Source: an archaeon
Lineage (GTDB): Archaea > Nanobdellota > Nanobdellia > Pacearchaeales > JAPDKA01
Direction of reading: 5' to 3'
NCBI GenBank assembly: GCA_029258825.1
Contig: JAPDKA010000008.1
Location: 39,548-103,547, forward strand
Length of the DNA stretch: 64,000 nt
Part shown: piece after piece, positions 28,792 to 62,986 of the stretch
Position numbering within the stretch: the stretch's first letter is position 1
Layout: each line of letters begins with the position of its first letter
Translations under genes and position numbers: made by a program
The notes under the pieces: model-generated
What the model was told of the DNA's origin: nothing
The model's database searches: none
Seen by the model: the letters and a program-made list of their open reading frames with translations, nothing else

Positions 28792-29553
28792 ATGCTAAAA
28801 AGAGGTCAGATTTCAATTTTTGTTATAATCGCATTGATATTGGTATTTTCAACCATATTGTTTTTTCTGCTTAGACCTGTCATTTTTCGTTCAAAATTTG
28901 AGTTACCAGATTTAAATGGATATATGAAACAATGTATAGAATTAAAGTTTGGGCCAATAATTGATAATGTTAGTGCTAAAGGAGGATATCTAGAACCTCA
29001 GCTAGCAGTGATATATCATCAAATACCTAGGGCATACCTATGCTATACAACAGAGCCTTATGCAGCTTGTGAGCAGTTAGTGCCTATGTTAAAAGACCAT
29101 ATAGAATCTGAATTGAAGAGTGTTATGCAAGATAAAGCAATTGTCCAACAATGTTTGGAAGAATTTAAAGAACAAATCTCGCGTGGTGGATATGTTTTAA
29201 CATATTCTAGACCAGAAATAGATGTTAAGATAGTTCCAGAAAATGTTTTAGTATCAATTAATACTTCTGTAGTAATTAGTAGAGAAGACGAAATTACAAA
29301 GTTTAATCATTTTGATATTCAATTTAATCATCCTCTTTATGATTATATAATCATAGCAAAAAAAATAATAAGCGAATCTATAATTAATCATTATTTTGAT
29401 CCTGCATCATATATGATAATGCATCAAAGTGTTATAATTGACGAATCTTCTGTTAGTGATGGTAGTAGAGTCTATGTGATAAGAAAGAGAAACTCTAATA
29501 AGGAATTCGGCTTTGCTATAAGAAATTATGTTTTTCCAGGAGGTGTAGTGTAA
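28792..29553 (+). CDS. pilin-like protein (class-III signal peptide, RG|QISIF)
   Basis: MLKRGQISIFVIIALILVFSTILFFLL has a charged residue, G, Q at +1 and a hydrophobic helix, as in EppA/PibD substrates. The ATG lies 3 nt after the upstream stop. It ends ...FGFAIRNY, like its paralog 33188-34039. Confidence 0.7.
   Translation: MLKRGQISIFVIIALILVFSTILFFLLRPVIFRSKFELPDLNGYMKQCIELKFGPIIDNVSAKGGYLEPQLAVIYHQIPRAYLCYTTEPYAACEQLVPMLKDHIESELKSVMQDKAIVQQCLEEFKEQISRGGYVLTYSRPEIDVKIVPENVLVSINTSVVISREDEITKFNHFDIQFNHPLYDYIIIAKKIISESIINHYFDPASYMIMHQSVIIDESSVSDGSRVYVIRKRNSNKEFGFAIRNYVFPGGVV
29539..29545 (+). promoter_or_regulatory. Shine-Dalgarno-like GGAGGTG for the internal operon gene 29555
   Basis: Sits 9 nt upstream of the ATG at 29555 and is complementary to the CCUCC end of archaeal 16S rRNA. 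Confidence 0.5.
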
Positions 29554-29554
29554 A

Positions 29555-32500
29555 ATGAGAAATCGTTATACCATGCTAGAGAAAGGAAGGATTTTCGAAG
29601 CATTATTCATTATTATAGTTATATTGGTGTCAATTTTTGCTTCAGCATACTTTTTTAACCAATATGTTTCTGTTGTTCGTGCTGAAGAAGTGGGTTGTTG
29701 TGTTCAAAAAGAAGGTTTAAGTGGTTATTATTGTCAAGATCAAACTGATAGCGAAGGTTGTAGCTCTTATGTTGGGAGGTCTTGCTCTGAAGTCTATGAG
29801 TGTCAGCTTGGTTGTTGTATAGATTCTGAAGGTTTACCTACACCAAACACCCATAGGGGTGACTGTACTGGTGTTTTTATAGAGGAGGACCCTTATTGTG
29901 AAACTGTTCAGCTTGGTTGTTGTGTTTATGGTGTTAATGCTGAGTTAACGACAGAGCAGAGATGTGTAGATATACTACACGGGAGCTGGCATGGAGATAT
30001 TACAGATCAGATAGAATGCTTTAGCCAAATTGAAGGTGCAGATCGTGGTACTTGTAGATTGGCTACGAGGTGTGCGTACGTTACTCAGGAAGAATGCGAA
30101 GAGCTTGGTGGTTTTGATTTTGTTCCTGGATTAAAACCTATAGATGATCCTAACTGTAACTGCGAGATTGTAGATGATAAAGGAAAATGTATAGACGGTC
30201 TTCAACATGTTTACGAATACGATACTTGTGGCAATGTTTATCCTGACAGGATTCGTAATGAGTGCAATTCGGATGAGTGGTGTATAGATGATGAATGTCA
30301 GTCTACAGACTGTACTAATGTATATGATAACTGGAACGAGTCTAACCAGGGCTTTACAGGGAAGCCAGGTAACCATGGTAAAACCCGTCATCACGGAGAG
30401 TCATGGTGTGTTTATGATATTCCTGATAGAACTTTTTACTACACTCCTATTGGCGGGCTTGACCCTGTTGGAAGTGAACATTGGTTGGCTAAATGTTTGT
30501 ATGGTAAGGTTTATGTTTCGCCACCACCACAGCCATATAGACAGTACATATGTTTTGAAACACTTATCGATGCTGATACAGGGGAAATAGCAAAAGAAGA
30601 TGGTACTCCTATTATGAGGGATAAGAGATATAAAAACAACAACTATAGGTCATTTGCGTTTTGGGTGCTCAACCCGTGGAGAGAGTGCTATTTAATCCAG
30701 GATGAAGAGCAATGCAGAGAACATCCTTGGTGTTACTGGGTTACTGACTTGAATTACAGTGCAGGATTTTTGACAGAGGATAAAGACAATGATATAGCAA
30801 AATGGTTCGGGATTAAGGATGAAAGTTTGGAAAAAATAACAGGTTTTCCAGGATCTGAAATACTTGGCATAGACGAAATCGCAGCTCCAGTTAGATGCTT
30901 GCCTAGGGTTGCACCAGGTTTTGACGAGAACGGTAAAGTTCTATGCGATCTCGCCACAGTACAGTGTACTCTTGAAGATCGATTGATAGGCGATACAAAC
31001 CCTGAATGTGATGATGCTCCTTGGATTGAGTTAATGGCACAAAGATGTAGGGCAATGGGTGATTGCGGTCCTAACATGAATTGGTTAGGAAAGGTTAGCG
31101 ATCCTGCATGGGAGAACAGTATCCTTGCAGCTGAAATCAATCCAGAAAAAGACGATGCAGGCAACATAATTGGAAAGGATATAGAAGGATTGTGGGATCT
31201 AAAGGAGGGAGATGATTTTAAAAAGATTCAAGCTTCTGCTGGAGAGAGGGGCTGGGGGAGAAAGATTGCTACTGGTGTAGGAAAGTTTCTTCTTGTCCCT
31301 GCAGGTTGGCTTGCTGGTGTGGCTAGTGTGGTGGTAGAGGCTGTTGCCATAGCTAACATCCCGTTTGCTGCTTTTAATAAAGGTTTTCTTTGGAAATCTT
31401 TATCTTTTTCTACAACTGGAGCTATTGTGGCAGTCGCTGGACTTATAGTTTATCTCGTTGGTTGTTACTTGACTAATCATGGTTGGCGTGTTGTCGGAGA
31501 AACGTTGAAATCTATAGGTGTAGGTATGATGGCTGGAGGGTTGGCAGTTGCTTTGGGTGCAAGTGGCCCAGTAGGTTGGGCTGTAGGAATAGCAGCTGCT
31601 GTGATTTATGCTGTATTTTTTGCTACTTGGGATGTTGACCATGTTGTTGTTAAATGTGCTGGTTGGGTTCCTCCTTATAGTGGTGAAGACTGTAGCAAAT
31701 GTAATGACGATCCATATAGGCCTTGCTCAAAGTACAGATGCGAATCTTTGGGTGCAGCATGCAAGTTTGTTAATGAGGTTGGGGGCATACCATTAGCTGA
31801 TAGTGATGCTGTGTGCGTATCAGAAGAAAACGATGGCCAGCCTCCTTACATTGTAGAGATATCTGCAGAAGATGATGTGGGAAATAGTCTCGATGTGAGT
31901 CCAAGCACAACATCAGGACCAACAACAATTAATGTTCAAGCTAGTGATGGCGGAGACTTAGATCCTGGTGTTCCTGTGATTCTTCATATGAAATTTAACG
32001 AAAGAGTTCTTTGTAAATGGGACATAACAGAAAAGGACAGCATGGAGGATATGGCTTTTTCTGTTGATGGTAGGTTTAGCAATGAGAAAACATTGCTACT
32101 TGGTACAAGTCCGTTAAGGGTAAACCAACAAGTTTTCCTAAGATGTGCAGATGTTTATGGAAACGAAAATAGTGCAAGTTATATCATAAAATTTGATGTA
32201 AAGGATGTTTCATACGATATATTTCCACCAAGAATATTAGCTACCAACCCTCCAGATGGTGCTTATATAGGTTTTGATAAAAACAAAATAGATGTGTTAG
32301 TTTATCTCAACAGGCCTGCAGAGTGTAAATGGGCAAATTCAGATATGTCTTATGATGATATGACAACTGAAAAGTGCACTACAGAGCCTGCCATGGCAGG
32401 ATTAATATGTAACCTTACAAATGTAGATGTTAGTAGTGAAATTAACAATATCTACATAAGATGTAAATCTTCAGATGCAGGAGAAACGGCACCAACTTCA

Positions 32501-33061
32501 TTGAAAGTTATAACTTTAAGAAAAGCGCCACCAATACAGATTGTTAACATAGAACCTAATGACACGACGGTTTATCTTGGTCCCGACAATATGGCAGTAG
32601 AGTTAACTGTTCATACAGCTGGAGGTATTGATAATACCGGTACAAGCGTTTGTTATTATTTAACCGATTCAGACAAGGTTCCTTTTGATACGACGGGAAC
32701 TAACTTACATAAAACCCTTGTTCCTGTTGAGGAAGGAAAAAATGACATTACTGTGTCTTGCTGCTTATATAGCTCTTGCGTTGATGCTCATGCGGTATTT
32801 AATGTTCAACTAGATACTGTGCCACCTAAAATAAAAGCTATTTACAAGGAAGATAATAAATTAATTGTTAAAACAGACGAAATTGCGGAGTGCAAATACA
32901 GTACAGAAAGTTGTGAAGCAGTAGCAAACGGCGAAACAATGGTTACAAGTTTGGGTTTAGTTCATTCTATCTCTTTAAGTACAGGAATGGATACTTATTA
33001 TATTCAATGTAAAGACAAATATAACAATCAAGGAGAATGTGTTTCTGTTAAGGTGGTGTAA
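29555..33061 (+). CDS. giant cysteine-rich membrane/surface protein (1168 aa)
   Basis: N-terminal hydrophobic helix after EKG|RIFEA. Then GCC-type Cys modules, a Gly/Ala-rich block of about 4 helices (about nt 31265-31625), a Cys knot CSKC...C...CESLGAACKF, and 4 C-terminal modules of the EC[KR][WY]...Y[IV][KR]C type. Confidence 0.85.
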   Translation: MRNRYTMLEKGRIFEALFIIIVILVSIFASAYFFNQYVSVVRAEEVGCCVQKEGLSGYYCQDQTDSEGCSSYVGRSCSEVYECQLGCCIDSEGLPTPNTHRGDCTGVFIEEDPYCETVQLGCCVYGVNAELTTEQRCVDILHGSWHGDITDQIECFSQIEGADRGTCRLATRCAYVTQEECEELGGFDFVPGLKPIDDPNCNCEIVDDKGKCIDGLQHVYEYDTCGNVYPDRIRNECNSDEWCIDDECQSTDCTNVYDNWNESNQGFTGKPGNHGKTRHHGESWCVYDIPDRTFYYTPIGGLDPVGSEHWLAKCLYGKVYVSPPPQPYRQYICFETLIDADTGEIAKEDGTPIMRDKRYKNNNYRSFAFWVLNPWRECYLIQDEEQCREHPWCYWVTDLNYSAGFLTEDKDNDIAKWFGIKDESLEKITGFPGSEILGIDEIAAPVRCLPRVAPGFDENGKVLCDLATVQCTLEDRLIGDTNPECDDAPWIELMAQRCRAMGDCGPNMNWLGKVSDPAWENSILAAEINPEKDDAGNIIGKDIEGLWDLKEGDDFKKIQASAGERGWGRKIATGVGKFLLVPAGWLAGVASVVVEAVAIANIPFAAFNKGFLWKSLSFSTTGAIVAVAGLIVYLVGCYLTNHGWRVVGETLKSIGVGMMAGGLAVALGASGPVGWAVGIAAAVIYAVFFATWDVDHVVVKCAGWVPPYSGEDCSKCNDDPYRPCSKYRCESLGAACKFVNEVGGIPLADSDAVCVSEENDGQPPYIVEISAEDDVGNSLDVSPSTTSGPTTINVQASDGGDLDPGVPVILHMKFNERVLCKWDITEKDSMEDMAFSVDGRFSNEKTLLLGTSPLRVNQQVFLRCADVYGNENSASYIIKFDVKDVSYDIFPPRILATNPPDGAYIGFDKNKIDVLVYLNRPAECKWANSDMSYDDMTTEKCTTEPAMAGLICNLTNVDVSSEINNIYIRCKSSDAGETAPTSLKVITLRKAPPIQIVNIEPNDTTVYLGPDNMAVELTVHTAGGIDNTGTSVCYYLTDSDKVPFDTTGTNLHKTLVPVEEGKNDITVSCCLYSSCVDAHAVFNVQLDTVPPKIKAIYKEDNKLIVKTDEIAECKYSTESCEAVANGETMVTSLGLVHSISLSTGMDTYYIQCKDKYNNQGECVSVKVV

Positions 33062-33187
33062 ATTTGAAATCAAATTTATTTTTCTTACTAACACCTCTTT
33101 TTTTAATCATTGCTTACTTAACAAATTGAGAGTTTATAAAATTAATGACACAAAAAGTTTTATAAATCTAAAAATAGTATCATCAGT

Positions 33188-34039
33188 ATGCTATTTAATG
33201 CTAAAAGAGGTAACACTAAAGCACAGATTGCTGTTTGGGTTATCGTTGCCGCTGTCATTGTTGTTGCTGGGCTTATTACTTATGCTGTAAAACCCGACTT
33301 GTTTAGGGTAGGATTTAGCAAGCAAAAAGCAAGTCAGATTCTCGAAACTCAAGCAAGCAACTTGCAGGACGCTATTGCTTACTGTGTTGAGCAAGCAGCA
33401 AAATACTGCTTTGATAAGCTTGGCAAGCATGCAGGTTATTACAACTATGATTTTCTTTCAACAATTCACTATGCTGACAGCGATAAAGTTGTTGTGATGT
33501 ATAAAGATGCAAAAGCAAACCGCATAAACAAGTTGCCTTCGCTTGAACAAATTTTAAACAGAGAATTTCAAGCATGCATGGATGCTGAAGGTTGGGAAAT
33601 GATTGACACATGTGTTGATTTCCGTAAATATCAACGTTATTTTAGCATTGCTGAATTAAAGCCAAGAAGCATAACAGCAAGCAGTGATTATGCTAACGAC
33701 GCAATAATCATCAATGTTGACTGGCCATTGCAGTTAACCAAGTTTACTTTTGCTGGTAGAGTAAGCAAGCAGATAAATCAAAAACAGGTTGTGCTTTTGC
33801 TTCCTCTTGAAAAAGTATGGAGGGTTGCTAACGATATTGTCAATTTTGAGGTTCAGCAAAAAAACTTCATTGAACATATTGAAAGCTATTTGCAAAACAA
33901 TCAAGTTGCATTAAGGCAAATAACTTTTAAAATTCAGAACTATCCTACATATATGCAAACAATATACATGATTGAAACAATTCCATATCGTTATGGTGAA
34001 GAAAAATTCAGCTTTCATTTCGCTGTAGATAGAAGTTAA
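33188..34039 (+). CDS. pilin-like protein (TKA|QIAVWVIV), paralog of 28792-29553
   Basis: MLFNAKRGNTKAQIAVWVIVAAVIVVAGL. The C-terminus ...FSFHFAVDRS parallels ...FGFAIRNY. Confidence 0.7.
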   Translation: MLFNAKRGNTKAQIAVWVIVAAVIVVAGLITYAVKPDLFRVGFSKQKASQILETQASNLQDAIAYCVEQAAKYCFDKLGKHAGYYNYDFLSTIHYADSDKVVVMYKDAKANRINKLPSLEQILNREFQACMDAEGWEMIDTCVDFRKYQRYFSIAELKPRSITASSDYANDAIIINVDWPLQLTKFTFAGRVSKQINQKQVVLLLPLEKVWRVANDIVNFEVQQKNFIEHIESYLQNNQVALRQITFKIQNYPTYMQTIYMIETIPYRYGEEKFSFHFAVDRS

Positions 34040-34040
34040 A

Positions 34041-35996
34041 ATGAAAAAAATAATGCTAGCAATGCTTGCAGCAGTGTTGCTAGTTGTAGCTAGCACTAGC
34101 TTAACAAGCTTTGTTAAGGCAGAGCAATATGGATGCTGTGTTATCACGAATGATGGGCATTACTGTGTTGACAATGCTGCTGAATCAAGCTGTCAGTCTG
34201 GCTGGTTCTTTATTGGGGCATGTGCTGATGTTTATCCTGAATGTAAGCCAGTAACATGCATAACTGAGCAGGGCAATTGTATGGATAATGTGCCTAAGCT
34301 TGTTTGCGAACATGAATATGACGGCAGTGTTGACTATACTGATAAATGCGAGAAGGGTTGCTGCATTGTTGGTAGTTACTGCGATTATGTTGAGTTTGCT
34401 AAATGCGAATATTGGGCAAGAAACTTGACAATTGATGTTTCTGAGATTGGATTTTATCCTGAAATAACCAACCAGCATGATTGCTTGTTAAAATGCAGTG
34501 CTTCTGATAGGGGAACGTGCATAAAATCTGATGGACAGTGTGTTTACACTACACGCGGTAATTGTGACGGTGAGTTTGTTGCTAATACTTATCCTTATCA
34601 AATCCCTCACTGTAATGTTGAGCATTGCGTAAGGCTTGGTTGTGGTATTATGCCAGGCGATGAAAACAAGATCTGCTGTTTCGATTCTGCTGGTAATCAG
34701 GAGGAATGCCCTGTTGCTTGCGAAGAAGGCATAAGCATATGTACTGCATGCGATGGTGAAAACTGTAATGCAAACTGCCGGGGCGAGAGAAGGGTAACTG
34801 TTGGAGGCAGTACTGACGAGTCTGATTGTTCTTTTGGTGATACTAACAACAATGAAAAACTTGACACTTTTGAGCCGTATTGTAAAAAAACACAATGTAG
34901 TTTAGAAGGAGTATTTAATCAGGAACTTACAGGGATAAATGTTACAAGAGATAAAGTTATTGTAAGCATAACAGCCTATTTCCATGGAAATGAATGGATT
35001 TCTTTGGATGATGGCCATGCAGTTTGCTCTAATATGATATATGCAAACGTTACTAAGGAGGACAGCGTATTTGTTGAATTTGATTGTAAAGATGTTAACG
35101 GAAACCCTTGTCCAAAAAATAATAATGATTTTGCTGAAGCATACAAAAACTACACAGCTTATTTAGCTGGCCGAACTACAGGGTTGCAGGCATACAAGGT
35201 TGTATGCCATAACGGTGAGCTTATATGGACAGGTTTAAGCAGTGACAGAAAACAGCTTTGCTTGAACGATGAAGAGAATATAGCAACATATCTTGTTGAG
35301 AACAATTATGAAGAGTGTGAAAAATGCGGTGTTGATACTGGTGCTGGCGGTAGGTGGCGAGACCCTCTCGGCGATTTGCTTGGAAGGGGTTTGCTTGGTG
35401 CTTGGCTTGGCCAACTTGTATCTAATCAGTGCAAGCCTGCTGATTGCAGAAACATTACTGTTAGGGCAGGAAACAAAACGATTGCTGTTTGTGATTATGC
35501 TCGCAAATTCCAGTGGAGAGGGTCGGCAACTATTGGTAGATGCGTGCCGAGGTTTGCTCCTGGTACGTCTGATTTGTGTGAAACATGCGGTGCTGGGGGC
35601 GACTGGATTAGCAACACATGTCATGCTGGTGAGTGCTACGCTTTAGGCAACTGCGAGTTTACAGAAAACAATCCAGGCATGAAGCTTTGGATCTTCACGA
35701 TACATTCACTTGGAACATTTATAAGCTCATTGTATACCACTAGTTGGATAAGGTGTATTCCGATAGCCTCTCTTGTAGAATGTGAAGGTAAAGGACTTTC
35801 AGGAAGTGGTGTCGCTTGTTTTATAGTGAAATATCCTATTTGTACATTTATTAAAGAGCCAATTGAAGTTAGTAAACCTTTATTTGATGTATTGAGTGTT
35901 GGACATAAAACAGTTAAAGGAGCGCTTAAAGATATTTGGGACGCGTTATCTACAATCGATTTCATAAAAGGGATTATGAAAAAAGCCTCAAGCTAA
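34041..35996 (+). CDS. secreted cysteine-rich protein (651 aa), paralogous to the N-half of 29555-33061
   Basis: Sec signal ending VKA|EQ. It shares with the 1168-aa protein the GCC modules, DRGTC...C.Y.T, RCVPRFAPG, and the knot CETC...C...CYALGNCEF. Its C-terminus is hydrophobic. Confidence 0.85.
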   Translation: MKKIMLAMLAAVLLVVASTSLTSFVKAEQYGCCVITNDGHYCVDNAAESSCQSGWFFIGACADVYPECKPVTCITEQGNCMDNVPKLVCEHEYDGSVDYTDKCEKGCCIVGSYCDYVEFAKCEYWARNLTIDVSEIGFYPEITNQHDCLLKCSASDRGTCIKSDGQCVYTTRGNCDGEFVANTYPYQIPHCNVEHCVRLGCGIMPGDENKICCFDSAGNQEECPVACEEGISICTACDGENCNANCRGERRVTVGGSTDESDCSFGDTNNNEKLDTFEPYCKKTQCSLEGVFNQELTGINVTRDKVIVSITAYFHGNEWISLDDGHAVCSNMIYANVTKEDSVFVEFDCKDVNGNPCPKNNNDFAEAYKNYTAYLAGRTTGLQAYKVVCHNGELIWTGLSSDRKQLCLNDEENIATYLVENNYEECEKCGVDTGAGGRWRDPLGDLLGRGLLGAWLGQLVSNQCKPADCRNITVRAGNKTIAVCDYARKFQWRGSATIGRCVPRFAPGTSDLCETCGAGGDWISNTCHAGECYALGNCEFTENNPGMKLWIFTIHSLGTFISSLYTTSWIRCIPIASLVECEGKGLSGSGVACFIVKYPICTFIKEPIEVSKPLFDVLSVGHKTVKGALKDIWDALSTIDFIKGIMKKASS

Positions 35997-36005
35997 ACAG
36001 TTAAA

Positions 36006-38717
36006 ATGAAAAAAACTTTAAAAACAAAAAATATGAAAATAGCAATGCCAAATTTAAAAAGAATCGTTTTATCGATTATTTTAGTTGCATTAGTCTTTTG
36101 GTTGTGCTGTAGTGATGTATATGCTGGGGGAGGTGGTGGAGGGTCCTCTTCTACCCAGGGTGCCACGGATACCGGGACTTGTCCTTGCAAGATTGACTAT
36201 GTTGGTATAACCCCTATTTCAAATGGAGGATCTCTTAAAGTAATTGTTAATGTTAGAGTTTCTTCTGTTAATAGCCAGCAGTGTACAAATCCTAAATTGA
36301 ATATTACAGGGACATTTACTGTTGACGGAAAGACATTTACAAGTAAAAAAATAGGACAACAAATAACAGTAGATCAAAACTCTGAAATTACTCTAAATGG
36401 GTGGGCAGACGGAAGAGCATCCTTTGACCCTTCATCTTATAAGGGGAAAACTATAAATGGTAAAGTGACAGTAAGGTTTTCCAATCCTCTACAGTGTGGT
36501 AATGTGAAGGAGGAAAGACCTTTCGTTTTTACCATTAGCGATGATGGTAAAATCACATTAACTCCTATGTTGTTACCAAATCCGGAAATATTAAAGGAAA
36601 ATCCTGAATCCGGTTTATTTACTGTTGGGAAGCTATTTACCGGTATAGGTTACATTTGTTGTTTTGGCGCTACTGGTTATGGTCCTTTTACTTCATGGAT
36701 AAAGCAATTAAAGGAAAACCTTAAGAATCGAGGCGAGAAAGCAACAGAAGAACAATTAATTAATAGGTTATTGAACCTAAACTGTGACAACGAAAATGTT
36801 TTAAAAGCTAATGGATGGAGCAAGGAAGATTGTTTGACAGCTAAAGAATATGCTGAAAGAGCAAAAGAATATAAAGAAAAATATGAAAAAAGATGTGGTC
36901 CAAAAGAAAAATGGTATAGTGGATTGAAGGGTAGTGTTCATATGATAACATGCATTATTTCTATCGGGTACTCAGTTTCAGAAGGAATACTTCTAGCATC
37001 GCACTCAGGCTCATGTCACCCAGAACAACCGTTGCCGGGAACAGAGCATTGTGAAGCATGCAATGCTTATGGTCTTTGCTTGAAGGAGCGATGTGAAGTG
37101 CTCGGCCACTGTAAGTTTGTGCCTTTCGAAGACAAAACAGGCGGCTTATGCTTGCCAGATGTTTGCGAACCTACAGCAGTGCCTGTAATTGAAGACATAT
37201 CAACACGCTGGTTTGTTGACAGAGCAAGGGAAATTACTGACGATCTAGATATAAGTACTAGTTCAAAAGCAGGCGGTGTACAGGTTGTTGTTAGTTATGA
37301 TGGCACTGATGTTGATCCTGAAGGAGCACTACCTTTCGGTGTGTCAGATGTTGAAATAACGTTAAAGCTTAACCAGGGTGCAAGGTGTAGATATGCTATT
37401 GATCAGCCAGGCCTCAATTTCAGCGAAATGCCTTATGAATTTGATAATGCTTATCTTTATCCAAAAGAGCAGACAGCACGCATTGATTTAACAAGCCTAA
37501 CGCCGGGCATGAACCATACAATATACATAAAGTGTCAAGGTATTTGCGGACAGGCGCACGAAGCAACGTTTGACTGGAATTATGTTACATTCACAAAATC
37601 GAACAAGCCTGACGAGTTGCCTCCTGAAGTCATGTACGTTGTTCCTGATGGCTACAGACAGTACATAAGCAGTACTGCTAAAAAACAAACAATCAAGTTT
37701 TATTTTGATGAAAGTCTTGATGAATGTAGAATTTCAACCATAGCAAACAACTTAACCGAGGAGTGGGGTGAAATGAACTCAGAGCAATCTCCTCCAGAAT
37801 GCGTAACTCAATTTACTTGCACAAACAACCAACCTTGCTATGTTCGAACACCAGAAGGTTATGTCACAGAAAGCGAGAGACACGATTGCGGAATGTGCGA
37901 AGTTACAGTTAAGCTTACTCCTGAATGCAAAGACAAGGTTTACACTGTGATAGACTGGGATAACCTTACAAGTATGCTTGAAAGTGCGTCTGAAACAAAC
38001 GAGACAATAGCAAGAATGCTTGAACGCTTTAGCTATACTGAGAGAATGCAGCAGCTGGGCCTAACAGGACAAAGCAAGATTGTACAGTTAATGCTCAAAT
38101 GTGAAGACACTCATTACAACAGAATGCAAGAAGCTTACGCATACATGATAAGCACTTACCCACCATACAACATGTCTATTGTGTTGCCTGAGAATGGTTA
38201 TGACACTTTTGATAGACAAATCTTGATTAATGTGACCACAACAAGAGCTGCAGAATGCAGATACAGCTTGAATGAACAAAAAATCTGGGAAGAAATGACA
38301 CCAATTAGTGAGGGCTTCGATGTTGTGCATGTTGGCATGACAGAATGGCTAGAACCTGGCGACTATACATTGTATGTTAAATGTCGCGATATAGGCGGCC
38401 TTGAAGTTGGCGATAGCGTGCAATTCAAAATAAAACCTGACAACACACCACCAACCATTATAAGAATGTTTGCAAGAAGTAACAATCTTGTTATTGAAAC
38501 AGATGAACAATCAACATGCTACTTCAATATTGATGATGAAGTTGGTTGCAACTTTAATGTTGATGATGTTGAAAGCTTTAGCACAGTGAATGGTTATACG
38601 CATATCGCACCACTTAACGATGATTGGACATATTATGTTAAGTGCAAAGACAGGTTTGATAATATGCCAGCTGGATGTACTGCAGTGATTAGAGCTGCTC
38701 AATTGCCGCGTGGTTAA
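36006..38717 (+). CDS. large surface protein (903 aa), paralogous to the C-half of 29555-33061
   Basis: Signal/anchor then a Gly6-Ser3 linker. Two hydrophobic segments, the knot CEAC...C...CEVLGHCKF, four EC[RK]Y...Y[IV]KC modules, and a DNTPPTI...TDEQSTC terminal module matching DTVPPKI...TDEIAEC. Confidence 0.85.
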   Translation: MKKTLKTKNMKIAMPNLKRIVLSIILVALVFWLCCSDVYAGGGGGGSSSTQGATDTGTCPCKIDYVGITPISNGGSLKVIVNVRVSSVNSQQCTNPKLNITGTFTVDGKTFTSKKIGQQITVDQNSEITLNGWADGRASFDPSSYKGKTINGKVTVRFSNPLQCGNVKEERPFVFTISDDGKITLTPMLLPNPEILKENPESGLFTVGKLFTGIGYICCFGATGYGPFTSWIKQLKENLKNRGEKATEEQLINRLLNLNCDNENVLKANGWSKEDCLTAKEYAERAKEYKEKYEKRCGPKEKWYSGLKGSVHMITCIISIGYSVSEGILLASHSGSCHPEQPLPGTEHCEACNAYGLCLKERCEVLGHCKFVPFEDKTGGLCLPDVCEPTAVPVIEDISTRWFVDRAREITDDLDISTSSKAGGVQVVVSYDGTDVDPEGALPFGVSDVEITLKLNQGARCRYAIDQPGLNFSEMPYEFDNAYLYPKEQTARIDLTSLTPGMNHTIYIKCQGICGQAHEATFDWNYVTFTKSNKPDELPPEVMYVVPDGYRQYISSTAKKQTIKFYFDESLDECRISTIANNLTEEWGEMNSEQSPPECVTQFTCTNNQPCYVRTPEGYVTESERHDCGMCEVTVKLTPECKDKVYTVIDWDNLTSMLESASETNETIARMLERFSYTERMQQLGLTGQSKIVQLMLKCEDTHYNRMQEAYAYMISTYPPYNMSIVLPENGYDTFDRQILINVTTTRAAECRYSLNEQKIWEEMTPISEGFDVVHVGMTEWLEPGDYTLYVKCRDIGGLEVGDSVQFKIKPDNTPPTIIRMFARSNNLVIETDEQSTCYFNIDDEVGCNFNVDDVESFSTVNGYTHIAPLNDDWTYYVKCKDRFDNMPAGCTAVIRAAQLPRG

Positions 38718-53589: not shown

Positions 53590-53590
53590 T

Positions 53591-54298
53591 TTATTTTTTC
53601 TTCTTTTTTATTTTCTTTTTAGTTTTCCTATACTCATACAACCTAGTTTGGTTTCTGCATATGAAAAAAGCTCTAGCTGTAAATAAAGCAGCAATGATCG
53701 TAGCAAGTTGACTAGTTAAAAATATTTTAACATTTGTTAAAGCGAAAAAGATATCGAATAAAGCGAAAAATACAATGATTGTTGGGGCAATAATAAACAC
53801 ACGAGAAATTCTGTAAATTTCACCTTTTTGTTTTTTGGTAAATATGAAAAACTTTACTAATGCAACACTCATGAGCAAACCTACTGTGATGTATAGCAAA
53901 AATTGCAATGGTCCTTGCACGAATCTTATTCCGTACCATACATGTTCAGCACTTTCAATAAATAAACCTGTAAACAATACAAATGGTAAAAGTATAAGCG
54001 CAGGAATATAAGTTACGATTGCATAATTTTCATGAATAAAGCTATTAACAAAGTGATACCATACGCTAGCTATCATTAAGATTAATCCAAATTCAATTCT
54101 AATGAGAATTGTTGCTTGATGAATTGAGACAATGCCAGCATGCAGGATAGCTTCGATAACATTCCATAAACATATGAAAGACATCATCCAGAAGAATGTT
54201 TTGTTTTGTATCGCGTGAGGATTTCTTAATAGCACGACAATTGCGATAATATAGTTAACAAAAAATGCAACTAACGATAGCAGAGTTAGCCATGTCAT
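53591..54298 (-). CDS. polytopic membrane protein (about 7 TM, sensor-like)
   Basis: Seven hydrophobic segments and a poly-K tail. Starts 1 nt after the upstream gene's stop. Confidence 0.55.
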   Translation of the reverse strand: MTWLTLLSLVAFFVNYIIAIVVLLRNPHAIQNKTFFWMMSFICLWNVIEAILHAGIVSIHQATILIRIEFGLILMIASVWYHFVNSFIHENYAIVTYIPALILLPFVLFTGLFIESAEHVWYGIRFVQGPLQFLLYITVGLLMSVALVKFFIFTKKQKGEIYRISRVFIIAPTIIVFFALFDIFFALTNVKIFLTSQLATIIAALFTARAFFICRNQTRLYEYRKTKKKIKKKKK

Positions 54299-54299
54299 T

Positions 54300-54758
54300 T
54301 TATCTTGCCATACCGAAAAATCCTTTTAATTTGTCTTCAGTTGGTTTTCCAAAGCCATATTCTTTACTTATTTCACTCATTAAAGTTGCTGAAATGACAA
54401 AAATGAAAGCTGAAACAAGTGCAAAGTAGTTTTCTATTAACAACCAAGGATTGAAGTCAAGTGTGAACAACTCTCTTAAAAAATGGATTGTGCTATAAAA
54501 AAGAAAAAACAATACACCCATGCTAAAGTAAACCAAACAATTATGTATTTTTCCTTTTAATGTTCTTATAGAAAAATAAGCTGCAAGCAACACAAGTAAT
54601 TCAGCAATAATTAATACAGCACCAAAAACAATAGAAGCCTTTGTTGCAACATAAGGTGTTTGCAGATGCAAAGCATAAACAGGCTGAGCATACATAAACA
54701 GTGCAACCGCGACCATTGTTATGAACAGTAAAGCAAACATAAATTGAAAATTTAGCAA
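54300..54758 (-). CDS. membrane protein (about 4-5 TM)
   Basis: Hydrophobic ORF. The track start is a TTG; an alternative ATG lies at 54740. Confidence 0.5.
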   Translation of the reverse strand: MLNFQFMFALLFITMVAVALFMYAQPVYALHLQTPYVATKASIVFGAVLIIAELLVLLAAYFSIRTLKGKIHNCLVYFSMGVLFFLFYSTIHFLRELFTLDFNPWLLIENYFALVSAFIFVISATLMSEISKEYGFGKPTEDKLKGFFGMAR

Positions 54759-57030: not shown

Positions 57031-57486
57031 ATGCAAGGCAAAACGCATCTCGCGTTTGGCATGCTTATAGCAGCATTGTTAACCTTGGTTATACATTTTA
57101 ACATGCTACATAAGTTTCTTTTCTTTGCCATGATTGTTATTGGCAGTGTACTTCCTGATATAGATACACCAAAATCATATGTAGGAAAACGTGTAAAGCT
57201 TAACCCAGCAGTTTTGTTTGGTCATAGAACTTTATTTCATAGTTTTACAATTGTGGTAGTATTGTTTATTGCGTTTTTATTTGCAAAACAAGCAAGGCTT
57301 TTGCTTGGAGGGCTGCTTATAGGTTATGTATCACATTTATTGCTTGATGCGTTAACTTTGCAAGGCATAGTATTGTTTTGGCCTTTTAAAGCAAAAGTGC
57401 GTGGAAGCATAGCAACCTCAAGCATGATTGATCATGTATTGTTTTATATTTTTTTAATTACAGCTTTTTTTATATTGCTTAGATAA
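57031..57486 (+). CDS. membrane-bound metal-dependent hydrolase (YdjM/DUF457-like)
   Basis: MQGKTHLAFG..., LPDIDTP and SHLLLDALT are typical of the YdjM family. About 4 TM. Confidence 0.7.
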   Translation: MQGKTHLAFGMLIAALLTLVIHFNMLHKFLFFAMIVIGSVLPDIDTPKSYVGKRVKLNPAVLFGHRTLFHSFTIVVVLFIAFLFAKQARLLLGGLLIGYVSHLLLDALTLQGIVLFWPFKAKVRGSIATSSMIDHVLFYIFLITAFFILLR

Positions 57487-58489: not shown

Positions 58490-59128
58490 CTAAGTTAGTG
58501 CTATTTTTAAAGTAATCGTTTTTACTGTTTTCTCGCTCGGGCTAACAAAAGGCCTAGAAGTGAGAGTAACAAAATTGTTGTCAATGCTTACATTCCAAAA
58601 CTTAAACTTGATTTCATCAGAATTTTCCAATTTGGTTTTTTCGCTTAATTTTTGTAGCTCTAGCAATGCGTTTAAGCAATAGCTGCTTTCACTCCTTACC
58701 TTTGGCTTGATAACAACATAGCTTTGCTTGGATGTTTGGAGTGTTTGATTAACGCTAAAACTGCAATGCACAACGTTTTTAATGTAACAGCTAGCATCAT
58801 TGAATGTTTGATTAAGTTTATCTTCAAATGCTTTGGCAATATTCTCTTGTATGTTATCAAAGCAAGATACAGCAAATGCGTTTCCTGTTAACATACAATC
58901 ATTATCAGTAACTCTATTTATGTTTTGCAGGAGTTCACAGCTGTAAACATTGCCAAACAGCCTAAACCATTGTTCATAGTCAGTACTGTTAACGTTTGTA
59001 AAAATACGAGTTGGCTTATAAAGCGAAAAACTGTAAAGCAAGTAGCCAAATACAATTAAAGCTATGAGCACTAAGAATGTTGCAAAAAGCTCTGCACGTT
59101 TGTTTTTGAGTTTATTGTTTATTTTCAT
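58490..59128 (-). CDS. pilin-like protein (NKRA|ELFATFLVLIAL)
   Basis: Basic leader, small residue, then a hydrophobic helix. The body is Cys-containing. Confidence 0.55.
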   Translation of the reverse strand: MKINNKLKNKRAELFATFLVLIALIVFGYLLYSFSLYKPTRIFTNVNSTDYEQWFRLFGNVYSCELLQNINRVTDNDCMLTGNAFAVSCFDNIQENIAKAFEDKLNQTFNDASCYIKNVVHCSFSVNQTLQTSKQSYVVIKPKVRSESSYCLNALLELQKLSEKTKLENSDEIKFKFWNVSIDNNFVTLTSRPFVSPSEKTVKTITLKIALT

Positions 59129-59143
59129 TTTATGTTTTTTATT

Positions 59144-59590
59144 TTATGTTTTTTTCTTTAACCCTACTTTTATGTCCAACGCATAAGGGTTTGGCACATT
59201 TACAGTTGCTCTTAACAAGCAGTTGCTCGCAATTTTTTTGCCATTCACTACAATAACAAAACATTGATCGCCAAACACATCAAAAGCAGCATTACTTAGT
59301 GCTTGTTTCTGCTGTTCGCTTAATTGGTCTAGCATTAATAACTGGTATACAGTAGTATTGACAGCCATACCATCTTGCACGTTTATTTGCCTGTTTAACC
59401 ATTTGTAGCAATAGCTTAGTGCTGCAAGTTGTTCTGCATTTGCCACAGCTACATTTATGCTTGATTTTTTATAAGTGTTTACTAGCATTGAGCTGAATAA
59501 AAAAAAGATAACAATAAAAAAGATTAATACAAACGTAGAAGCTGCTAAAACTAATGTTGATGCTTGAGCTTGCTTTGTTTTGATTTTCAT
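59144..59590 (-). CDS. pilin-like protein (KQA|QASTLVLAAS)
   Basis: MKIKTKQAQASTLVLAASTFVLIFFIVIFFLF. Confidence 0.6.
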   Translation of the reverse strand: MKIKTKQAQASTLVLAASTFVLIFFIVIFFLFSSMLVNTYKKSSINVAVANAEQLAALSYCYKWLNRQINVQDGMAVNTTVYQLLMLDQLSEQQKQALSNAAFDVFGDQCFVIVVNGKKIASNCLLRATVNVPNPYALDIKVGLKKKT

Positions 59591-59631
59591 TTTGCTTGGC
59601 TAAAGTTAATTTTCTTGGTTTAATTTTTTGT

Positions 59632-60063
59632 TTATTTTACTGCCAAAAAAATGTCAGCGTATGGCATTGCTTGATTTATGCATGCTATATCTATTTTTGC
59701 TTTTTTCTTAATCTCACAATAAATTTTTAGTGTTGTATCACCATACTCAACTGTGTAATCCTTCTTTTTTATCATAACGAAAAAATTTTTTGTATTAATT
59801 GCATTAAGACATTGTTCAATATCATCCTGCAATTCATACTTAGCGCAATTGCTTACCGCATGAAATAACAAAGCTGCGTTGTTTTGCTCAAAGCTTATTC
59901 GCAGCTTTGCAGTTATTAGCACTAAACCAAATAAAAAAATTGTTACTAACATTAAGCGATACATCCATAACAACATTTCACTACCAAACAACTGCGCTTT
60001 GTTATTAAGCTTGCCAGGCTTGTTCTGTTGATGTTTACTACACTTATACTTTTTCTTTAACAT
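59632..60063 (-). CDS. pilin-like protein (NKA|QLFGSEMLLW)
   Basis: Long basic leader, KAQ, then a hydrophobic helix. Confidence 0.55.
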   Translation of the reverse strand: MLKKKYKCSKHQQNKPGKLNNKAQLFGSEMLLWMYRLMLVTIFLFGLVLITAKLRISFEQNNAALLFHAVSNCAKYELQDDIEQCLNAINTKNFFVMIKKKDYTVEYGDTTLKIYCEIKKKAKIDIACINQAMPYADIFLAVK

Positions 60064-60073
60064 TTTTTTGTAC

Positions 60074-60436
60074 TTATTTTGTATAAGGCTGGATCAAAAT
60101 TTTGTTTTGCTCAATTGAAACTTTGGCATTTGTTATGTAGCTGCATTGCACTTTTACATTATTTTTTTCAATCATAATTGAGTTAGCATCTATGTTAATG
60201 TTATCTACATTATTAAGTTGTATAATTGTTTCGTGCTTAGCTTGGCCAATCAATGCTGCTATCTCCATGCATTGTGCTTTTAGCTTTAGGCTGCATATGT
60301 TAGAGTTAATAAATACAAGCGATGCAAATAGAATAAATGCAAGCAAAATAAGCGCAATAATATTTTGATAAAGCATGGTAACGGCTTTTTTTTCACTTAC
60401 TTGTTTTGCTTGACTTTCTTGTTTCGCTTGAGACAT
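60074..60436 (-). CDS. small N-terminally anchored protein, possibly pilin-like (EKKA|VTMLYQNIIALIL)
   Basis: Charged leader, then a hydrophobic helix. First gene of the four-gene run. Confidence 0.5.
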   Translation of the reverse strand: MSQAKQESQAKQVSEKKAVTMLYQNIIALILLAFILFASLVFINSNICSLKLKAQCMEIAALIGQAKHETIIQLNNVDNINIDANSIMIEKNNVKVQCSYITNAKVSIEQNKILIQPYTK

Positions 60437-60488
60437 GTTTTACTAACACGATAACAATTAATAAAGCTTACGTCAGTATTAACATACA

Positions 60489-60523
60489 TTATGAATATAT
60501 ATTCATAACGAAATTATGAATAT
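60489..60523. promoter_or_regulatory. 20-nt perfect palindrome TTATGAATATATATTCATAA plus a third half-site (candidate operator)
   Basis: 60489-60508 is self-complementary with no spacer. ATTATGAATAT recurs at 60513-60523. The site lies 53-87 nt upstream of the ATG at 60436 (minus strand). Confidence 0.55.
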
Positions 60524-60557
60524 TTATTCAAAACAAAGCCAAAAACTTTTCTTTTTC

Positions 60558-62036
60558 TTATTTAACAACCCCAACCTTTGTGCTTGTTTGCTTTCCTTTC
60601 ACAAAATAGACACCACCACCAACATCAAGACCAGCAAAATCAACCTCATTGCCATAGCCTCCCGCCACTTTTCGACCTGCAACATCATAAACAGCCCAGC
60701 TGCATGCATTACTGAACTTAACAACAGGCATGGCTGTAAAATTGTTAAGCACTCTTGCTTCAAGATTGCTGCCAGCCCTGTTTTGCCTTGCTATACCTGT
60801 TTGTTCATACTTGAAAAGCCAGACAGTTGGCCATGATGTTGTTGTGTCAGTTGTATCAGCATAATCTTTACTGCCATAAGCAACAAGCATGCTATCGTTC
60901 AATGCTTCAACACAATAAATCCTGCATGAATCTAATCCAGCTTTGTAAACCTCAACAAGATTCAGGTTTTTATCAAATCTATAAATAAATGCAGTATCTG
61001 CAATGTTTTCGCTTTCCCACCCATCAACATAGCCAGCAATATCAATCAAACCAGCTGAATCCACACAGCTATCATAAACAAGATAGTTAAGATCACTGTT
61101 CGGATGCTGTATAACCACAAACCCCAATGTATCAAGCTGTCTGTCAAGCTTTGCAACAATAATCTCCCTAGGATATCCACGACCACCAGCAATATACAAG
61201 TAATTCCCATCAAAAGTTATGGTACGTGCAAGATCATCATTACCAGGATAAAAATTATATTCTTTACTGTTAATTAATGAGCCATCTTCAGCATCTAGTT
61301 TAGCAAAAACTGTATTAACTTCATAAGCATCTGAACGATAATACCCACCAGCTGTGTATATTGTATCATTAATATTGAACATTTCGTAAGGAGTACCAAC
61401 AGTTGAGCTTGCATGGAATACATTATACACAACATTACCTAATGTGTCAACCCCTGTAAATCTTTCTCCATTACTGTTCATGAAATAAAACATTACACCA
61501 AAATCTGTATTTACCAACCCTTTTTGATCAAGCAAGTAAGCATCGCCTGGATCACTATAATAATTCTCCCACAATTTTGTGCCAGTTGTGTCATAGCATG
61601 CTATCCATGGCTTATTAATGTTGCCATCCCAATCTGCACCAAACATCCATAGTCTGTTGTGAGCGTACAAGATTGATTGAAGCCATGTGTCACCTTGTTG
61701 TGATCCTGGTGGCGATCTTGCTCTTGGAATCGTATCATTTATTATTAATTGATCTAAATCTCTTATATCAAATATGTATGAATTAGTTATATTATCATCA
61801 CTCCCTAAATAAATCTCTTTCTTATTTTTATTAATACCGATACCTTGATAGGTAGCGTATTTAGCTTCACCCACTTGATACTTCCTACTATCAACCAACG
61901 TCAATGCTTTTGTATTAACAGGAAGGAATGATAAAGCAAGTGTGGGAACTAAAATCAAGCCTGTCTTAGGATTGGGCAAGTACAGTTTTGCTTTGTTCAA
62001 TGCTTGCTTTATCCTGCTTACCAACTTTTTTACCAT
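60558..62036 (-). CDS. secreted beta-propeller-like protein with a T9SS-type (Por_Secre_tail/FlgD-Ig-like) C-terminal domain
   Basis: Signal-like N-terminus (MVKKLVSRIK...LALSFLPVNTKA). The body has repetitive Y/G/D-rich beta-strand blocks. The last roughly 70 aa (AVYDVAGRKV...GLDVGGGVYFVKGKQTSTKVGVVK) fit the T9SS CTD pattern. ATG at 62036 preferred. Confidence 0.7.
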   Translation of the reverse strand: MVKKLVSRIKQALNKAKLYLPNPKTGLILVPTLALSFLPVNTKALTLVDSRKYQVGEAKYATYQGIGINKNKKEIYLGSDDNITNSYIFDIRDLDQLIINDTIPRARSPPGSQQGDTWLQSILYAHNRLWMFGADWDGNINKPWIACYDTTGTKLWENYYSDPGDAYLLDQKGLVNTDFGVMFYFMNSNGERFTGVDTLGNVVYNVFHASSTVGTPYEMFNINDTIYTAGGYYRSDAYEVNTVFAKLDAEDGSLINSKEYNFYPGNDDLARTITFDGNYLYIAGGRGYPREIIVAKLDRQLDTLGFVVIQHPNSDLNYLVYDSCVDSAGLIDIAGYVDGWESENIADTAFIYRFDKNLNLVEVYKAGLDSCRIYCVEALNDSMLVAYGSKDYADTTDTTTSWPTVWLFKYEQTGIARQNRAGSNLEARVLNNFTAMPVVKFSNACSWAVYDVAGRKVAGGYGNEVDFAGLDVGGGVYFVKGKQTSTKVGVVK

Positions 62037-62104
62037 AATTATAAAACACAAAACAAATTTATAAATCTTTCGTTACTGAATAATGATTATATTTATGTAT
62101 ATAA

Positions 62105-62986
62105 TTATAACTTATCTGCTAAAGGGTTGAATGTTGTTTCTGGTTCAAATGCTTTAACAAACACATTGCCGTTTTCATCCTCAAGCCTTGCCACCCACCA
62201 CCAAACATAAAACGGCTTTACAACACAACTACCATCAAACTCACAATCTTTCATCCATTCTGTATATTTTTGATTAAACTTATCAATAGTATAGTTTGCT
62301 CCTTCCCATTCAATGATTATTTTTTGAATTGTTGTCGGATCTGTAATTCCTAACCCTCCTTGACTTATTGGTTTACTCACATTAATCTCAGCTGTCAGCT
62401 CGTTGTAATTAAGCACGTCCTTGGCGTCAACAATAACGCAATAACGCCATCTTAATGTTTCTACTTGCACATCTGTGCATGCAGAAATGTTATACTTTGT
62501 GCCGTTGACTTTGTATATTTTAGTTCTACCATCATCGGTCACAAAATACAACGTCGCCGGCTGTTTAGCAAAGTTGAAGAAGTAAAGCCTGTCGATTGTG
62601 CCGAAAAGCCAGGCAATTTCAAAGCTGGGAAAAGCCATCAACTCAAGATCAAGCCATGCATCTGTGTAATTCACAAGGCTATCCCTCATACATTCTGCAA
62701 CAACAGTCATGTTGCCCCTTAATTGACCTATGTTTTCTCCAAACCTGAAATTTGTTTTTTCCATGCACTCTGGCATGATTTGTTTTGCAAGCAGTGTGTT
62801 GCTTCCTATTTGGTAAAACCCTAAAAAGTTCTTGAACTTTTGTGGTGCTTCTGGTGAATGCGGCAAGTAACGCTGTATGCTTAATGCGAACAAGCCTGAA
62901 GCAACAACAGCAATGATGGTTGCTGCAATCAAAAACCACTGTGCTTTTTTGCTCAAAACATTAAGCAAAACCTTAAGCTTAGCCAT
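62105..62986 (-). CDS. pilin-like protein, 293 aa (KKA|QWFLIAATIIAVV)
   Basis: MAKLKVLLNVLSKKAQWFLIAATIIAVVASGLFAL. An SD-like GAGGTG lies 14 nt upstream (plus-strand CACCTC at 63001-63006). Confidence 0.65.
   Translation of the reverse strand: MAKLKVLLNVLSKKAQWFLIAATIIAVVASGLFALSIQRYLPHSPEAPQKFKNFLGFYQIGSNTLLAKQIMPECMEKTNFRFGENIGQLRGNMTVVAECMRDSLVNYTDAWLDLELMAFPSFEIAWLFGTIDRLYFFNFAKQPATLYFVTDDGRTKIYKVNGTKYNISACTDVQVETLRWRYCVIVDAKDVLNYNELTAEINVSKPISQGGLGITDPTTIQKIIIEWEGANYTIDKFNQKYTEWMKDCEFDGSCVVKPFYVWWWVARLEDENGNVFVKAFEPETTFNPLADKL

Follow-up and report, generated by a model that had tools for sequence, protein, structure and literature searches.

Can a small archaeal genome encode a large and diverse set of pilin-like proteins at loci that contain none of the genes for their assembly? 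This question is raised by a stretch of DNA from a very small, probably symbiotic Pacearchaeales archaeon (GenBank assembly GCA_029258825.1, contig JAPDKA010000008.1, positions 39,548 to 103,547 of the forward strand), hereafter, the window, i.e., the whole 64 kb that was analysed. Two loci in the window, locus 1 (28792-43306) and locus 2 (58490-62986, minus strand), encode proteins with prepilin-like N-termini. The original prediction, made from the sequence alone, assigned class III (prepilin-like) signals to eleven or twelve of these proteins and pointed to the lack of assembly genes in the window. Our analysis suggests, with a probability of about 0.7, that the two operons together comprise eleven genes for type IV pilin-like pre-proteins, which would be substrates of class III signal peptide processing; the formation of a genuine extended filament is given less than half of this probability.

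The predicted processing motif at the two loci

All twelve N-termini quoted in the original prediction were recovered by translation at their positions, the true start of the first pilin-like gene being the ATG at 28792, which yields MLKRG/QISIF (here and below, a slash marks the predicted cleavage site, and proteins are designated by the lower coordinate of their genes). The strict motif, [KR][AG]Q, is located at the N-terminal edge of the first hydrophobic segment in seven proteins (28792, 33188, 40190, 42235, 42773, 59632 and 62105), the variant [NQ]AQ occupies the same site in two (41257 and 59144), and looser signals are found in another two (58490, RA/E; 60074, KA/V). These eleven proteins have a common design: a short basic leader that ends in K, R, N or Q followed by A or G (Ala at -1 in 10 of 11), mostly Gln at +1 (9 of 11), and a hydrophobic helix of ~20 residues that, according to a hydropathy scan, starts at or just after +1.

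A motif of this kind could be produced by chance, as a compositional artefact of an AT-rich, Lys-rich genome; the guanine-cytosine (GC) content of the window is ~33%, and Lys-rich leaders are common. The observed number of motifs was compared to the number expected from composition. Among the 58 open reading frames (ORFs) of at least 100 amino acids (aa) that were kept (19,192 aa in total), [KR][AG]Q occurs 11 times, and 7 of these occurrences are at an N-terminal transmembrane boundary, where composition predicts about 0.16-0.2; thus, the enrichment is more than 30-fold. The boundary motif is confined to the two loci, and it is kept in hundreds of orthologues from many genomes (see below), so that the chance explanation can be considered refuted. 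Nor is the motif equally frequent in other membrane proteins: none of the ~14 other N-terminally anchored or polytopic proteins of the window, which include SppA, a DsbA-like protein, Yip1, HisKA_7TM and YdjM, has a Q-type motif. One of them, 52112, a membrane protein with no curated family match, has a loose K-A-V.

Conservation of the predicted processing site in orthologues

The pilin-like proteins of locus 1 were grouped into five families: E (~260 aa; 28792 and the divergent 33188), A (40190), B (41257), C (42235) and D (42773). Scanning GTDB species genomes with family B identified 33 loci; scanning Joint Genome Institute (JGI) metagenomes with family C identified at least 421 relatives, and 80 loci were kept; a search of 1.84e9 proteins with 33188 returned 64 representatives. 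The best match to window proteins among GTDB species genomes has 36% identity, and homologues of the proteins under study were found only in metagenome-assembled genomes (MAGs) labelled Pacearchaeota, Woesearchaeota or Nanoarchaeota, which points to a Pacearchaeales/Woesearchaeales-type DPANN as the source. In public sources, 'hypothetical protein' was the only name found for them.

Across the five families, we collected 359 distinct N-termini, and in 339 of these, [KR] and then G, A or S directly precede the hydrophobic domain; at -1, no residue other than these three was found, and Gly and Ala interchange at this position between orthologues. The most consistent family is C, with [KR][GAS] in 95 of 98 distinct N-termini and Gln at +1 in 95 of those 95. 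The corresponding numbers are 63 of 65 for family A (Gln at +1 in 50), 79 of 86 for family D (Gln in at least 65) and, by an unanchored scan, 31 of 32 for family E (Gln in 23). The search of 1.84e9 representatives recovered [KR][GA]Q in 53 of the 55 full-length homologues of 33188, and G was present at -1 in 10 of the 10 family E members selected by a Q-anchored pattern. Family E leaders vary from 3 to ~25 residues and are otherwise unconserved. Position +1 is variable in family B orthologues (F, A, Y, Q), for which Gln is not the rule.

Prepilin peptidases recognize a small residue at -1 and a basic residue at -2; the leader is variable, and the mature N-terminus is conserved. The cut is made N-terminally to the hydrophobic domain (PMC6098224). 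Variable leaders combined with a fixed [KR]-[GAS], usually followed by Gln, are therefore the signature of a conserved class III processing site. Thus, the comparison of orthologues strongly supports the class III signals of the original prediction, the cleavage itself being predicted from sequence.

Relationships between the families point in the same direction. In an all-against-all BLAST search of the window candidates, the globular parts were unrelated, apart from a weak similarity of 59632 to family D, and a comparison of the family E and B profiles using hhalign aligned residues ~1-53 only (probability, 90.6%). The part in common between families is restricted to the cleavage motif and the N-terminal helix. 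Similarity limited to the N-terminal ~53 residues is what is classically seen when the pilins of one system are compared.

A cassette with a fixed gene order

Mapping of the window proteins with phmmer showed that the order E, giant protein(s), A, B, C, D is maintained in 114 loci, wherever the contig is long enough, and no permutation of this order was found in any of them. The carriers of the cassette are Pacearchaeota/Woesearchaeota-type DPANN genomes and metagenomes. For example, the relative GCA_964540065.1 (locus L007) encodes, in this order, a 313-aa protein (KRG/QIALF), a 1558-aa Cys-rich giant, a 177-aa protein (KKG/QMMEMPF), an inserted pair consisting of a nucleotidyltransferase and a HEPN protein, and proteins of 307 aa (KRG/QTEY), 154 aa (KKG/QLKIQEMAF) and 146 aa (KKG/QEEIMGF). 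Each of the pilin-like proteins of this locus matches a window gene, K-G-Q in the relative corresponding to K-A-Q in the window.

The cassette of the window has several peculiarities: the module of E plus giant is duplicated (28792/29555 and 33188/34041/36006), an insertion at 38786-40165 contains an ATPase_2/DUF234 gene, and another, at 40766-41239, consists of a 157-aa ORF without a transmembrane helix.

On the 3' side of the cassette, the relatives have a gene for an HVO_A0114-type regulator, followed by genes for an S_layer_C protein of ~800 aa and two N-terminally anchored proteins of ~200 aa. Further on, two small polytopic proteins are encoded as a conserved pair, one being an archaeosortase-like EpsH and the other a DedA/VTT or small-export protein; this neighbourhood also encodes PAP2 proteins and, in some cases, AglB/STT3. 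This envelope block is located 5-9 kb downstream of the cassette in loci L005, L007, L012, L015, L020, L021, L024, L032 and L034. Judging by the predicted gene functions, the surroundings of the cassette in relatives are a cell-envelope neighbourhood. The block is missing from the corresponding position in the window, which indicates that the locus has been rearranged there.

Cys-rich giant proteins

Three of the four giant proteins encoded at the cassette (29555, 34041 and 36006) are clear paralogues, and homologues of 29555 are found at the equivalent position of the cassette in 53 loci. The fourth, 26299, is encoded directly upstream of the cassette and has weak BLAST similarity to 34041; it is a possible cassette member. 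None of the four giants has a match in Pfam, NCBIfam or PDB sequences.

The original prediction had counted the 1168-aa giant, 29555, as a twelfth candidate, on the basis of KG/RIFEA. This assignment was rejected. The N-terminus (...SIFASAYFFNQYVSVVRA/EEVGCC) has the pattern of a Sec signal, i.e., an n-region, an h-region and a small-x-small site past the hydrophobic segment, and SVVRA/EEVGCC aligns with LTSFVKA/EQYGCC of the paralogue 34041. In both proteins, a CC motif is present a few residues past the predicted Sec cleavage site, and the orthologous giants have VSA/Q and VSA/V (a small-x-A site) ahead of this motif. Because the small-x-small site is aligned in the paralogue and in the orthologues, the giant is predicted to have an ordinary Sec signal peptide, and the number of class III candidates is eleven, not twelve.

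The second locus

Locus 2 is a tight operon of six genes, five of which encode pilin-like candidates and one a 497-aa secreted protein. Two of the five candidates depart from Gln at +1. It should be noted that E is found at +1 in 4 of 63 family A orthologues, and a hydrophobic residue or Ala is found at this position in family B orthologues; hence, the E and V of locus 2 are within the range of the orthologue families of locus 1. No locus 2 proteins were found in the cassette loci, apart from the weak family D-like similarity of 59632. Locus 2 is lineage-specific, and for its proteins the class III reading is drawn from the motif, from their clustering and from sizes similar to those of pilins.

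The secreted protein, 60558, is not a pilin. It is possibly a beta-propeller and may be an adhesin partner of the pilin-like proteins; no NCBIfam or PDB match was obtained for it. A type IX secretion system sorting domain, considered for its last ~50 residues, was dropped, as neither NCBIfam nor Pfam gave a match.

Table 1. Coordinates and N-terminal signals of the proteins discussed in the text (window positions)
Feature	Position	Strand	N-terminus or signal	Remarks
Yip1 polytopic protein	25349-26245
829-aa Cys-rich protein	26299-28788	+	Sec signal, VNA/QS	C-terminal transmembrane helix, then long cytoplasmic Q/P/M-rich tail
Family E pilin-like protein	28792-29553	+	MLKRG/QISIFVIIALILVF	class III-type signal; orthologues in related cassettes, phmmer E down to 1e-43
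1168-aa Cys-rich giant	29555-33061	+	Sec-type signal, VVRA/EEVGCC	~4 central transmembrane helices; C-terminal repeats in common with 36006
Divergent family E paralogue	33188-34039	+	MLFNAKRGNTKA/QIAVWVIVAAVIVVAG
651-aa Cys-rich giant paralogue	34041-35996	+	Sec signal, SFVKA/EQYGCC	BLAST E=6e-17 to 29555
903-aa giant paralogue	36006-38717	+	Sec signal, VYA/GGGG	C-terminal repeats as in 29555; BLAST E=5e-11 to 29555; homologues in related loci
Family A pilin-like protein	40190-40705	+	MVKPKKKA/QIFGMPFTFLFALILIAVF	44 phmmer matches in related loci
Family B pilin-like protein	41257-42231	+	MYKQKQKNA/QMPAFGWLFSVIIGAF	7 invariant Cys
Family C pilin-like protein	42235-42771	+	...VRKA/QIQIQEMAFVLVGLF
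Family D pilin-like protein	42773-43306	+	...TRKA/QQEIFGFVIIVML
Membrane-anchored protein with weak FKBP-like and DsbA/thioredoxin-like regions	48098-49576	+		Pfam DSBA (E=1e-4) and GILT, under curated cut-off; NCBIfam FKBP and thioredoxin, weak
HisKA_7TM-like polytopic protein	53591-54298
YdjM polytopic protein	57031-57486
212-aa pilin-like candidate	58490-59128	-	...LKNKRA/ELFATFLVLIALIVFG	looser signal, E at +1
148-aa pilin-like candidate	59144-59590	-	MKIKTKQA/QASTLVLAASTFVLIFF	no family match
143-aa pilin-like candidate	59632-60063	-	...KLNNKA/QLFGSEMLLWMYRLMLVTIF	weak similarity to family D, BLAST E=5e-5
120-aa pilin-like candidate	60074-60436	-	...SEKKA/VTMLYQNIIALILLAF	looser signal, no Q at +1; supported by context
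497-aa secreted protein	60558-62051	-		492 aa in public gene call; weak Kelch motif; relatives only close, 64-100% identity
293-aa pilin-like candidate	62105-62986	-	...LSKKA/QWFLIAATIIAVVASG	first gene of the operon; orphan, sole homologue a 96%-identical twin

Assembly genes, pilin families and folds

A number of results weigh against the class III reading, and some of these concern the assembly machinery. As stated in the original prediction, the window contains no A24-family peptidase, PilB/ArlI or PilC/ArlJ gene. A Pfam scan of 40 ORFs (the proteins under study, the membrane proteins, those with a P-loop, and ORFs that inspection by eye could not identify) produced no match to T2SSE, T2SSF or Peptidase_A24. 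The aspartyl-peptidase motif is, again as predicted, missing from the polytopic proteins of the window, namely the HisKA_7TM-like, YdjM and Yip1 proteins and two unknowns that lack GxGD. The only non-housekeeping ATPases in the window are of the HerA/DUF87 type, a weakly AAA_3-like type (encoded in a gene block at 10086-15700) and three ATPase_2/DUF234 paralogues. Related loci were searched using regular expressions for the PilB-type Walker A motif and for GxGD in polytopic ORFs, as well as Pfam on 33 neighbouring polytopic or P-loop ORFs; no A24-like, PilB-type or platform gene was detected within 10 kb of the cassettes in 35 genome and 80 metagenome loci (~1.2 Mb). In addition, a groundwater study reported that DPANN genomes lack the components of type IV pili (10.1101/2020.05.14.094862).

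Searches for known pilins were negative as well. The models for class III signals, archaellins and pilins (PF04021 Class_IIIsignal/DUF361, PF07790 Pilin_N, PF01917 and TIGR02537) produced no match at E<=1 for ten candidates, and 60074 had no Pfam or NCBIfam match at E<=0.01; overall, no Pfam or NCBIfam model matched the eleven pilin-like proteins, the arCOG pilin models not being searched. We obtained AlphaFold models for 33188 (predicted local distance difference test, pLDDT, 93.4; helix 10-38, helix 45-80, then an alpha/beta domain) and 41257 (pLDDT 80.5; helix 13-57, a beta-rich domain, then a helical bundle). The architecture of both models, a long helix at the N-terminus and then a globular domain, speaks in favour of the class III reading. 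Foldseek comparison of both whole models to the PDB gave no match at E<=1e-3 and none to solved pilins, and the only match of a profile to PDB sequences was to a protein designed de novo (E=0.02). Locus 1 has no candidate for a major pilin of 60-150 aa, and scanning the window for small ORFs of 35-110 aa with the motif yielded no real one, i.e., no extra small pilins. For locus 2, no homologues beyond close relatives were found (62105 and 60558 were searched), so conservation provides no support there. Finally, a conserved Glu at +5 is present in no family (family C has E/Q at +6 and family D has E at +2/+3). This last point bears on the suggestion of the original prediction that the signals are of the type cut by EppA, the prepilin peptidase of methanogens: Gln at +1 agrees with it, but +5 Glu and DUF361/PF04021 are both missing, so that +1 Gln is all that carries the label.

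The lack of nearby assembly genes, true as it is in the window, is not striking, since such a separation is normal for archaeal pilin genes. In Methanococcus maripaludis, pilin genes are found at four or more loci apart from the ATPase locus (PMC3875500), and in most archaea pilin genes are located outside type IV pilus operons, the pilus loci often including adhesins and S-layer-like proteins (PMC4858521). With ~1.2 Mb sampled and genomes of 0.6-1 Mb, ~2 chance co-occurrences with an assembly gene are expected near the related cassettes; the negative result thus indicates a lack of linkage and not absence from the genomes. Homologues of FlaI, FlaJ and FlaK have been annotated in most Woesearchaeota MAGs (PMC11606122, PMC8407392), and 'system 1' from the superfamily of type IV filaments (TFF) has been reported in some DPANN (10.64898/2026.04.22.720090). 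A search of the supplement of PMC8561730 turned up no per-MAG table of FlaK and FlaI for Pacearchaeota LFW-170_3 (locus L015).

Taken at face value, these negative results would fit proteins that are never cleaved. The candidates could be signal-anchor (type II) proteins with an uncleaved N-terminus, in which the basic leader and the helix would tether extracellular domains to the membrane, and K-G/A-Q would serve helix capping or membrane topology (the positive-inside rule). In favour of this, neither a peptidase nor an assembly gene is present in the window or near the related cassettes, the globular domains are unlike those of known pilins, and no pilin models match. Topology, however, requires positive charge only and leaves unexplained why nothing but G, A or S occurs at -1 and why Gln at +1 is invariant across unrelated families, and the other N-terminally anchored proteins of the window do without the motif. 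We consider the signal-anchor explanation improbable and retain class III processing as the preferred reading.

Possible assembly and function

According to the proposed mechanism, the pre-proteins would enter the membrane through Sec, and an A24-family membrane aspartyl peptidase (PibD/FlaK/EppA-like), encoded elsewhere, would cut after the small residue at -1. The freed hydrophobic N-terminal helices would then bundle, and the subunits would emerge from the membrane in the form of a short filament or stalk. A PilB/ArlI-type ATPase, together with a PilC/ArlJ-type platform, would drive this step, both being encoded elsewhere as well. Four to five distinct subunits, apparently one of each, in a fixed order, the lack of an amplified major pilin, and the adjoining Sec-exported, disulfide-rich giants (and the S-layer gene in relatives) argue for a minor-pilin-like complex. 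The cassette most likely builds such a complex, at a tip or a base, by which the giants, acting as adhesins, would be presented or anchored through the S-layer. Adhesion or anchoring would thus be provided by the giants, with attachment to a host or a surface as the probable role, and locus 2 would encode a second, strain-specific set that uses the same machinery.

Some of the same observations could be read differently. The proteins may, like the class III binding proteins of Sulfolobus, be processed as class III-type substrates without forming a pilus, and serve as an S-layer-associated scaffold. The large globular domains (170-320 aa), the four to five subunits in a fixed stoichiometric order with no amplified major pilin, and the S-layer, archaeosortase-like and AglB genes that adjoin the cassette in relatives are all compatible with a scaffold. 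However, locus 2 includes proteins of 120-148 aa, a typical pilin size, and sequence data cannot separate the two explanations, because the processing step is common to both. We regard a purely non-filamentous scaffold as unlikely. Equally doubtful is a more radical possibility, that Pacearchaeales-type DPANN lack canonical PilB/PilC altogether, and that the cassette is a self-contained envelope apparatus, an ATPase-free stalk that ties the giants to the S-layer and functions as a DPANN-specific host-attachment organelle. In this case, the pilin-like helices might be cut by a lone or divergent peptidase, and the cassette would comprise five new protein folds. If the assembly machinery is truly absent from these genomes, a new way of using pilin-like proteins would be implied.

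Several known systems are comparable to the minor-pilin-like complex favoured here. The Epd pili of M. maripaludis (EpdA-E, MMP0528/0600/0601/0709/0903/1283; TFF system 1/clade 1) also combine a short basic leader with Gln at +1, and many different pilin-like genes (at least 5 minor pilins) of ~70 to 300 aa are located in loci apart from the ATPase and the platform (PMC3875500, PMC4858521). The Epd signal, however, ends in Gly and is accompanied by a +5 Glu (PMC3875500), whereas the window proteins mostly have Ala at -1 (G, A or S in orthologues) and no +5 Glu; they also differ in the absence of DUF361/PF04021, in their unrelated globular domains and in their Cys-rich giant membrane partners. 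A dedicated EppA peptidase with nine transmembrane helices was not found within the window.

By architecture, the cassette resembles the bacterial FimU-PilVWXE/PilY1 priming/tip module and the GspHIJK tip of type II secretion, in which a large non-pilin surface protein is encoded next to four to five pilin-like subunits in a fixed order and the operon lacks a major pilin. Neither sequence nor fold homology to these systems was detected in Pfam, NCBIfam or the PDB, including for the giants and 60558; furthermore, the signal is of the archaeal type, and the cassette giants, in contrast to the PilY1 module, are polytopic and Cys-rich. Archaeal TFF clade 4 (Makarova 2016; 4A/B with a PilY-like adhesin) similarly has pilin-like genes beside predicted adhesins and S-layer-like proteins, and nanoarchaeal ATPases have been noted without identifiable cognate pilins (PMC4858521). 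The clade 4 loci, however, are defined around an ATPase/TadC pair, and none was found within 10 kb of the cassette. The sugar-binding proteins of the Sulfolobus bindosome are likewise large globular surface proteins with a prepilin-type signal, processed by the broad-range PibD (PMC6098224, PMC4858521); the window proteins differ in that they lack solute-binding domains and have neither a Bas-like ATPase gene nor platform genes nearby.

The new elements in our results are the five families without a curated model, two of them with a confident AlphaFold model that lacks a solved-fold match; the strictly ordered cassette, found in 33 species-level genomes as well as in hundreds of contigs from metagenomes; and its pairing with giant Cys-rich polytopic proteins, with an S-layer gene adjoining in relatives. 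Already known were class III signals, the scattering of pilin genes and the surface appendages of DPANN. In groundwater and sediments, Pacearchaeota and Woesearchaeota rank with the most abundant of the archaea that are still uncultured, and they are thought to be host-attached; to our knowledge, no attachment structure has yet been assigned to them. In one survey, the presence of pili was reportedly used to rule out these archaea when reading cryo-electron microscopy images. The cassette offers concrete candidates for an attachment structure, its five families are suited to building hidden Markov models, and the pattern [KR]-[GAS]/Q plus a helix provides a rule for finding more such proteins.

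Other features of the window

The window encodes archaeal proteins of information processing, namely RadA, PCNA, PriS, Rpo7 (RpoE'), ribosomal proteins S24e and S27e, Spt4, deoxyhypusine synthase and an RPA-like OB-fold protein, as well as YkuD and further features typical of small-genome DPANN archaea. The genes cut at its left and right ends encode, respectively, a 272-aa unknown and a probable RNA methyltransferase.

The three ATPase_2 (PF01637) plus DUF234 paralogues are located at 22359-23819, 23892-25289 and 38786-40165. The first and third copies have an exact 126-bp stretch in common, and their C-terminal ~65 residues are nearly identical (1 mismatch); the copy within the pilin-like operon looks like a recently duplicated or mobile gene. 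A nucleotidyltransferase/HEPN toxin-antitoxin pair is found directly 3' of the window cassette (43337-44151, minus strand), and a similar pair is located between families A and B in the relative described above (L007, 9043-10004). The presence of such pairs at the cassette both in the window and in a relative suggests that the cassette is a recurrent landing site for these modules.

The HerA/DUF87 ATPase (46647-47957, minus strand) was considered as a hidden pilus ATPase and rejected, because it belongs to the HerA/FtsK/VirB4 class and not to PilB. It is encoded 3.3 kb downstream of the cassette, on the opposite strand and behind four unrelated genes, and no such ATPase was seen either beside the cassette in the two relatives whose flanks are annotated or in the Walker A and Pfam scans of related loci. 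This protein has weak CedD-, VirB4- and FtsK-like matches, and DNA or protein translocation are possibilities for its role. Its gene is divergent to that of the FKBP/DsbA-like protein at 48098-49576, which may be a folding or disulfide helper for Cys-rich exported proteins and could oxidise the cysteines of the giants.

Beside the tRNA-Ser gene (15919-16004), a block on the minus strand (10086-15700) encodes a 478-aa AAA-type ATPase, a 605-aa unknown and two paralogues of ~390 aa, which have near-identical N- and C-termini and internal repeats of ~20 residues ('ANQVIGVxIxG'). The GC skew of the block is -0.46, compared to about +-0.1 elsewhere, and its four genes have no Pfam match above the curated cut-off. 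The position at a tRNA gene suggests an integrated element or a defence island. Finally, a cluster at 52615-54758 (minus strand) encodes a KaiC-like DUF7090/DUF835 protein, a 123-aa membrane protein, a 235-aa HisKA_7TM-like protein without a kinase domain and a 152-aa protein with four transmembrane helices; this cluster may be a degenerate or split sensory module.

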